The notes under the pieces: generated by a model
Database searches by the model: none
What the model saw: only the letters and a program-made list of their open reading frames with translations
What the model was told of the DNA's origin: nothing
From: Octopus vulgaris
Taxonomy: Eukaryota
Assembly (NCBI GenBank): GCA_951406725.2
Contig: OX597830.1
Span: 72,974,001 to 73,038,000, forward strand
DNA length: 64,000 nucleotides
Reading direction: 5' to 3'
Made by a program: the position numbers and the translations under genes
In this document: positions 44,559 to 45,014 of the stretch, piece by piece
Position numbering within the stretch: position 1 is the stretch's first letter
Layout of the letters: each line of letters starts with the position of its first letter

Positions 44559-44611
44559 TATGTCTGTATTCGCATATGTATGCATTCGCGTATATATATC
44601 TAAATATATAT

Positions 44612-44645
<34 letters not shown>

Positions 44646-44689
44646 TGTGTGTGTGTGTGTATGTGTGTATGCATTTGGATATATGTGTG

Positions 44690-44745
<56 letters not shown>

Positions 44746-44875
44746 TATGTGACAATTATTCGGTGGCCAAGATAAAACTCTGAGTTTCGGATGCTGAGGT
44801 GGAAATCCACACCAACATCTCTTCGGTTATCTGAACCTCAGAGTTTTATCTTGGCTACCGAATAATTGTCACATA

Positions 44876-44920
<45 letters not shown>

Positions 44921-45014
44921 TATATACACACATATATCCAAATGCATACACACACACACACACATATATATATTTAGATATATATACGCGAATACATATG
45001 CGAATACAGACATA
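44559..45014. repeat. Long inverted duplication (foldback); arms 44559-44792 and 44829-45014
   Basis: TATGTCTGTATTCGCATATG...CATATGCGAATACAGACATA and ATGTGACAATTATTCGG...CCGAATAATTGTCACAT are reverse complements. Confidence 0.92.
44770..44832 (-). ncRNA. Type I hammerhead-like motif (U4C core) at the foldback turn
   Basis: AGATAA CCGAAGA GATGTTG gt GTGG attt CCAC ct CAGCATC C GAAA CTCAGAG TT TTATCT: 6-bp stem I and 7+4-bp stem II. Confidence 0.78.

Follow-up and report, generated by a model that had tools for sequence, protein, structure and literature searches.

Insertions of Penelope-like elements (PLEs) are described, in the excerpts of the literature drawn on here, as having a 5'-truncated copy joined in inverted orientation at the 5' end, and a 30–40-bp tail at one end, the tail being ascribed to endonuclease resolution (PMC8557442). 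A matching layout with inverted copies is given in PMC3846280, where self-priming on an antisense template is proposed. According to the cited part of PMC11167929, a PLE protein, modelled as a dimer, acts on AT-rich DNA, its preferred target, where it cleaves both strands and extends them; two start sites of its reverse transcriptase (RT) bound the tail, and the hammerhead was not needed for insertion in vitro. How PLEs make the inverted copy is called unresolved in the excerpted PLE papers (PMC8557442, PMC3846280, PMC11167929). As to the ribozymes, minimal PLE hammerheads are reported to show little or no activity as monomers, to carry an extra base between positions 9 and 10.1 and to occur as dual motifs on opposite strands in Schistosoma (excerpts of PMC4209133), and a U4C change in the core is known from a viroid, with considerably lower activity in vitro (PMC3088659, in part).

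Here we analysed a foldback at positions 44559–45014 of the window, i.e. the whole 64,000-nt stretch of DNA under study. Most probably, it stems from one retrotransposition event of a high-copy PLE, or of a non-autonomous derivative, which placed two 5'-truncated, hammerhead-bearing 3' ends head to head in a TA-rich microsatellite. Like the endonuclease-bearing PLEs (Penelope/Poseidon, Neptune, Nematis and Naiad), as far as the excerpts portray them, the locus combines a head-to-head copy with a one-sided tail, a microhomology joint, an apparently TA-rich target and a motif in the terminal repeat; unlike them, it comprises a terminal stump only, includes an internal mosaic of 120–170 bp, possibly has a longer tail and was identified without an ORF. 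It shares with PAc (Poseidon) of Anolis, as described in the cited part of PMC11167929, two start sites bounding the tail, use of both strands and an AT-rich target, all of which are read from sequence alone in our case. An ATG at the start of stem II is likewise common to both, whereas the frame stops after 20 codons here. Naiads are without canonical hammerheads in the excerpted text of PMC8557442, and the supplement of this paper, which holds the Octopus Naiads, gave no match to three terms searched from the motif region. Neither the family nor the two-cDNA model set out below was found described in the octopus/cephalopod hammerhead and Penelope twin-priming literature (mostly open-access, outside Repbase and Dfam).

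Geometry of the foldback

The left arm of the inverted repeat extends over 44559–44792 (234 bp) and the right arm over 44829–45014 (186 bp), the latter being shorter because its microsatellites are shorter; the loop between them, 44793–44828, measures 36 nt. An earlier, sequence-only reading had described about 230 bp of mosaic duplicated in inverted orientation around a 36-bp loop. The loop and the inverted repeat are as described there, while the length holds for the left arm and not for the right. The arms differ in microsatellite lengths, in one 4-bp indel (44580–44583) and in four mismatches, counted in the block 44695–44792/44829–44926. These are located inside the TA run, at 44765/44856, at 44785/44836 and at 44789/44832, the last within the junction; the second represents the TGGCC/TAGCC difference that had been singled out, together with the repeat lengths, in the sequence-only reading.

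At the centre lies a type I hammerhead-like motif (44770–44832, minus strand). The left copy (44559–44833, minus strand), of which the family described below covers 44743–44833, corresponds to a 5'-truncated 3' end of the element without a tail and reaches 7 nt upstream of the hammerhead core. The right copy (44829–45014, plus strand) corresponds to a more deeply truncated 3' end, which starts in the 3' strand of stem II and carries C in place of A15.1 at 44836. The 5' half of the motif, comprising part of stem I, the core and most of stem II, forms the loop (minus strand) and is present in the left copy only. The two copies meet in a head-to-head joint (44829–44833, assigned to neither strand), in which the 5' strand of stem I of the left copy overlaps with the 3' strand of stem II and G12 of the right copy. 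The 5-nt overlap, one position of which is ambiguous, was read from the window sequence and from the family continuation in loose ends behind 44831 and 44833. The joint thus falls inside the motif as previously proposed, with an overlap of five nucleotides rather than the three (ATC) given at the time.

The microsatellite mosaic occupies 44569–44738 (minus strand) within the left copy and 44883–45004 (plus strand) within the right copy. Beyond the right copy follows a one-sided tail (45015–45035, plus strand), which may reach 45077 and part of which is confirmed as family sequence. A candidate target duplication of 11 nt, 44551–44561 and 45078–45088 (both plus strand), would close the insertion; it is low-complexity, almost pure TA repeat, and therefore weak. 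If it is real, the tail measures about 63 nt.

A high-copy family and the origin of the two copies

A run search listed 24 public sequencing runs, the best of which contain 0.32–0.51 of the words (three organisms); no RNA run was among those listed. Four runs (X3, X2, X4 and X6) were compared with 44730–44892 only, at 80% likeness, and in all four the foldback centre matched 1,799–4,021 contigs per run; it is therefore a high-copy repeat. Abundances within the family are given as summed contig depth, which denotes a depth share of contigs and not a copy number. Family copies cover 44743–44833 and 44829–44881 and then depart from the window sequence, with 3.3–6.2% of the family contigs running over the ends of the compared stretch. 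Most copies are devoid of the mosaic and pass from about 44881 directly into the sequence found at 45005. Indeed, loose ends behind 44878 and 44881 continue into the sequence of window positions 45005–45035: the last 22 letters of the X6 consensus behind 44881 are identical to 45014–45035 and X3 is similar, where distal consensus letters may rest on few contigs (24–36 per end, agreement 0.6–0.8). The first part of this continuation matches the outer end of the left arm. Since family sequence resumes beyond the mosaic, the mosaic lies inside the element's 3' end, and by this comparison the inner as well as the outer end of each arm belongs to the family.

These data bear on the proposal of the sequence-only reading that host DNA flanking this site was copied through template switching at the ribozyme. 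The mosaic resembles ordinary host microsatellite DNA, only 0.6–1.9% of the family depth enters TA at the inner-arm end, and host spacers captured inside Pen1 elements are reported in the excerpted part of PMC3846280. However, element sequence brackets the mosaic, resuming beyond it on both arms, and both arms end at element landmarks, which largely refutes the proposal and leaves it extremely improbable. Host DNA may have been captured into the source element at an earlier stage.

Two kinds of 3' end occur among the loose ends, which either become heterogeneous right after a short motif or are extended by the tail. The left arm stops at the short motif and is followed by TA repeats (no-tail class), and it is at this very motif that loose ends before 44743 turn heterogeneous; the extension is found on the right arm (tail class). 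In the family, some 40 nt separate the hammerhead-like motif from the no-tail 3' end. The mosaic is common to both arms, as is a 2-nt insertion relative to the family continuation; the arms therefore derive from the same source. As each copy contains sequence missing from the other, the left one on its 5' side and the right one on its 3' side, this source is a third template, which, to judge from the two arms, carried the whole motif, the mosaic and the tail.

Structures of this type are known to trouble assemblies (PMC8557442, in the part cited), and the whole 163-bp centre was spanned by none of the 32 pieces listed (of 11,129), nor was the exact junction seen at 99% identity among the listed pieces, as might be expected of an assembly or library foldback artefact. 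Against such an origin, each arm carries private substitutions: the left arm deviates at 44765 from 97.7–99.3% of the family depth, the right arm at 44836 from 94.1–99.7%. Moreover, the arms end at family landmarks, a unique tail and flank follow beyond the right arm, and similar joints occur in independent runs. From the private substitutions, the landmark ends and the recurring joints we infer a genomic rather than a chimeric origin, in agreement with the sequence-only reading, and consider an artefact highly improbable.

A four-point template switch during replication yields the order c' b' a' b c d. This order is found here when c denotes the mosaic, b the 3' half of the motif, a its 5' half and d the tail. 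An older plus-strand copy could accordingly have grown the mosaic in place before a local four-point switch copied it backwards, leaving the motif's 5' half as an inverted spacer; the microhomology at the junction and the occurrence of the mosaic in only a few percent of the family contigs would also fit. However, a random switch would have no reason to end the left arm at the no-tail boundary, head-to-head joints are common in the family, and, as a weaker point, the outer flanks fit a single TA-rich target. A local template switch is hence quite improbable.

The features of the locus are in better keeping with a PLE insertion, as the link drawn in the sequence-only reading had implied: an inverted, 5'-truncated copy adjoins at the 5' end, the one-sided family extension is at least 21 nt and may be about 63 nt long, and a variant of the hammerhead found in PLE terminal repeats (pLTRs) is present. 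The inverted truncated copy and the one-sided tail match published PLE insertions. What counts against this reading is the tail length, which would exceed the published 30–40 nt if the duplication is real, together with the non-canonical core and the extra base before G12. There is no RT/GIY-YIG ORF at the locus. A protein search with the 40-aa frame through the motif gave 700 candidates, none at E 1 or below, which is a weak test with a query whose last 10 residues come from the TA run; Pfam returned no family for any of the eight ORFs picked from the 149 listed in the window. Open frames extend through the tail (45008–45079, plus strand) and through the motif and inner arm (44737–44826, minus strand), and the ORF of the element may begin in these two, as it does in other pLTRs.

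The missing ORF, and the failure to find an Rfam match, would also be compatible with a non-autonomous hammerhead element of another sort, i.e. a non-LTR retrozyme or a SINE-like element in place of a PLE end. Mollusc type I hammerheads do occur in retrozyme tandems (PMC7229834, in part), and our locus resembles animal non-LTR retrozymes, as characterized in the cited parts of PMC7229834 and preprint 10.64898/2026.07.22.740005, in having a type I hammerhead in a non-coding repeat. It differs from them in that the window holds a single motif and the locus an inverted pair with a tail, with no tandem head-to-tail units of 150–400 bp. As the one-sided tail and the inverted partner are PLE marks, and the excerpted preprint derives such retrozymes from PLEs anyway, an element of this kind is very improbable.

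For the PLE insertion, we slightly favour a route via two cDNAs. The element's enzyme would nick both target strands in the TA-rich microsatellite and initiate a cDNA at each of its two start sites, only one of the two products including the tail. The stretch 44559–44833, antisense on the plus strand, would correspond to the first cDNA, primed at a TA nick from the no-tail start, and the tail-bearing copy, antisense on the minus strand from the right, to the second cDNA, initiated at the tail start. One cDNA would stop in stem I and the other in stem II, leaving 3' ends that are complementary over 5 nt (44829–44833) and could anneal there, annealing being the presumed mode of joining. An alternative using the same mechanisms is a self-primed cDNA hairpin with the tail trimmed on one side: were the left cDNA simply to fold back, this would account for the loop, and for the one-sided tail only if a tail was trimmed. 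The closeness of the ribozyme to the turn mainly reflects its distance of only some 40 nt from the usual 3' end; its stems may, in addition, stall the enzyme and offer complementary ends.

The hammerhead-like motif

The motif at 44770–44832 has a type I architecture, with three stems around the core and stem I open. Stem I consists of 6 bp, stem II of 8 bp plus a 4-bp hairpin, and the near-palindromic stem III of 3 bp as a monomer. The core reads C3 C4 G5 A6 A7 G8 A9, followed by GAAA, with one extra C before G12; U16.1 corresponds to 44777 and U17 to 44776, giving a GUU triplet. The canonical core CUGANGA/GAAA/UH is thus departed from by C at position 4 and by the extra C, all other core positions being canonical. 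Upstream of the motif, the sequence of family copies would add a bulge and some 5 bp to stem I; as stem I is longer in the family, the window copy is cut inside this stem. A hammerhead-like motif is present on the minus strand as claimed in the sequence-only reading, which overstated the case in calling it complete, given C4 and the truncated stem I; the cleavage site it predicted, 44776/44775, is also obtained from the modelled fold.

Like metazoan PLE hammerheads in the excerpts of PMC4209133, the motif is of type I with a long stem II, a stem III whose short, near-palindromic sequence suits dimer formation, a single additional base next to the core and a high copy number; unlike them, it shows C4 in most of the family depth as well as U17, and its additional base precedes G12 instead of following A9. 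Neither strand of the window contains another motif of this kind, and none of 60 block shuffles yielded such a motif. No second copy of the motif, the inner arm or the tail exists in the window, the match at 46725 comprising 12 nt only, and motif pattern scans gave 0 matches in metagenome, genome and viral contigs. In Rfam, 44750–44870 matched no hammerhead family at E values up to 10, and no hammerhead was among the 150 matches listed of 191 for the whole window; the matches obtained were merely microsatellite- and hairpin-driven miRNA hits scoring under the gathering threshold.

Folding of the 63-mer gave −15.1 kcal/mol for the hammerhead versus a minimum of −17.4 kcal/mol, and the hammerhead fold had a probability of 0.003 against other folds of the 63-mer alone. 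In a read-through transcript of the foldback, the core pair 15.1–16.1 reached a probability of about 2e-9 or less. Pairing of stem III improves in a dimer, but in the right arm the partner half no longer has A15.1. The motif at 44770–44832, buried as it is by the foldback, is probably catalytically dead. If transcribed, the hairpin as a whole is predicted to have a very high stability, the two strands giving −281 and −265 kcal/mol.

Within the family, core position 4 is C in 85–95% and U in 5–15% of the summed depth, and U17 is found in about 98% or more, with C in 0.2–2.3%. The centre base of the near-palindromic stem III varies (7–47%), in keeping with dimeric PLE hammerheads (PMC4209133), as does the stem I bulge. 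In the loose-end consensuses, T-A pairs are seen by eye to be exchanged for C-G in both the lower and the upper part of stem II. Variable positions amount to 2 of 13 in the core versus 19 of 50 outside it, a difference that is not significant (p = 0.11). The U minority at position 4 (44825) sits at a CpG and could reflect decay, yet the corresponding change at its CpG partner, G5 (44824), is not among the variants listed at 1% in any of the four runs. Standard descriptors would overlook a C4/GUU hammerhead with an additional base occurring throughout a family, and such a motif could serve to test whether PLE hammerheads are retained for cutting or for shape.

Turning points across the family and other inverted repeats

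Eleven other head-to-head joints were found in the family, three of which occur in two runs. In 5/11, the cut site lies upstream of the start of either copy; the others have their breakpoints within the core, stem II or stem III. That none of the 11 contains the whole core is partly by construction, as 'skip' joints cannot do so, and the pile-up of joints at 44761–44765 may come from the 20-letter minimum side. Among five further joints, which may be strand changes or go-backs, two start one copy in stem II, with summed depths of 65.7 (X3) and 469 (X4), both above the single-copy level. In addition, four listed contigs, two each from X3 and X4, bridge the present turning point with 0–7 gaps and 8–12 differences, at least 31 letters on each side and about 88–90% identity.

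Detection of the joints is biased in both of these respects. For the expectation of the sequence-only reading that foldback centres are enriched in hammerheads, the picture is mixed: four contigs turn here, while the 11 joints are scattered and 5/11 lie downstream of the cut. The ribozyme is not an obligatory turning point, a mild hot spot at this position being possible. In the simplest reading, truncation points scatter over a motif that happens to be about 40 nt from the usual 3' end. It appears unlikely that the ribozyme structure steers inversion, in the sense that stalled cDNAs of the C4 family join repeatedly at the 5-nt stem I/stem II motif and thereby produce recurrent hairpin insertions with the whole core in the loop. 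If true, the structure of the PLE hammerhead, not its cutting, would be tied to the making of the inverted copy, and the family would represent a large source of long hairpin RNA.

As it stands, the foldback neatly illustrates the kind of PLE insertion remnant known from the literature and is of little significance by itself. The abundant family with its short foldbacks provides thousands of natural junctions for testing how inverted copies are formed in PLEs.

The window as a whole is microsatellite-rich eukaryotic DNA with many dispersed repeats, its SINE and microsatellite content being suggestive of an octopus. ORF pieces at 21741–22067 and 59508–59780 (both minus strand), for which Pfam gave no match, resemble decayed ends of Tc1/mariner transposases. 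A 26-bp satellite at 3878–4573 (23.7 copies) flips its orientation at 4493/4494 and ends in about three inverted units. At 35289–35322 and 35488–35521, a 34-bp inverted repeat (94%) encloses a copy of the commonest SINE-like repeat of the window, and related sequence is also present at 36719–36803. Outside GA and TC runs, a 55-bp inverted repeat (42435–42489/42605–42659, 82%) forms a nested hairpin of ~225 bp, and two copies of a dispersed repeat, 49211–49348 and 49458–49594 (82.6% alike), are inverted around a TATG run. Finally, a 265-bp direct repeat is found at 38851–39115 and 39429–39689, the copies being 96.6% identical.
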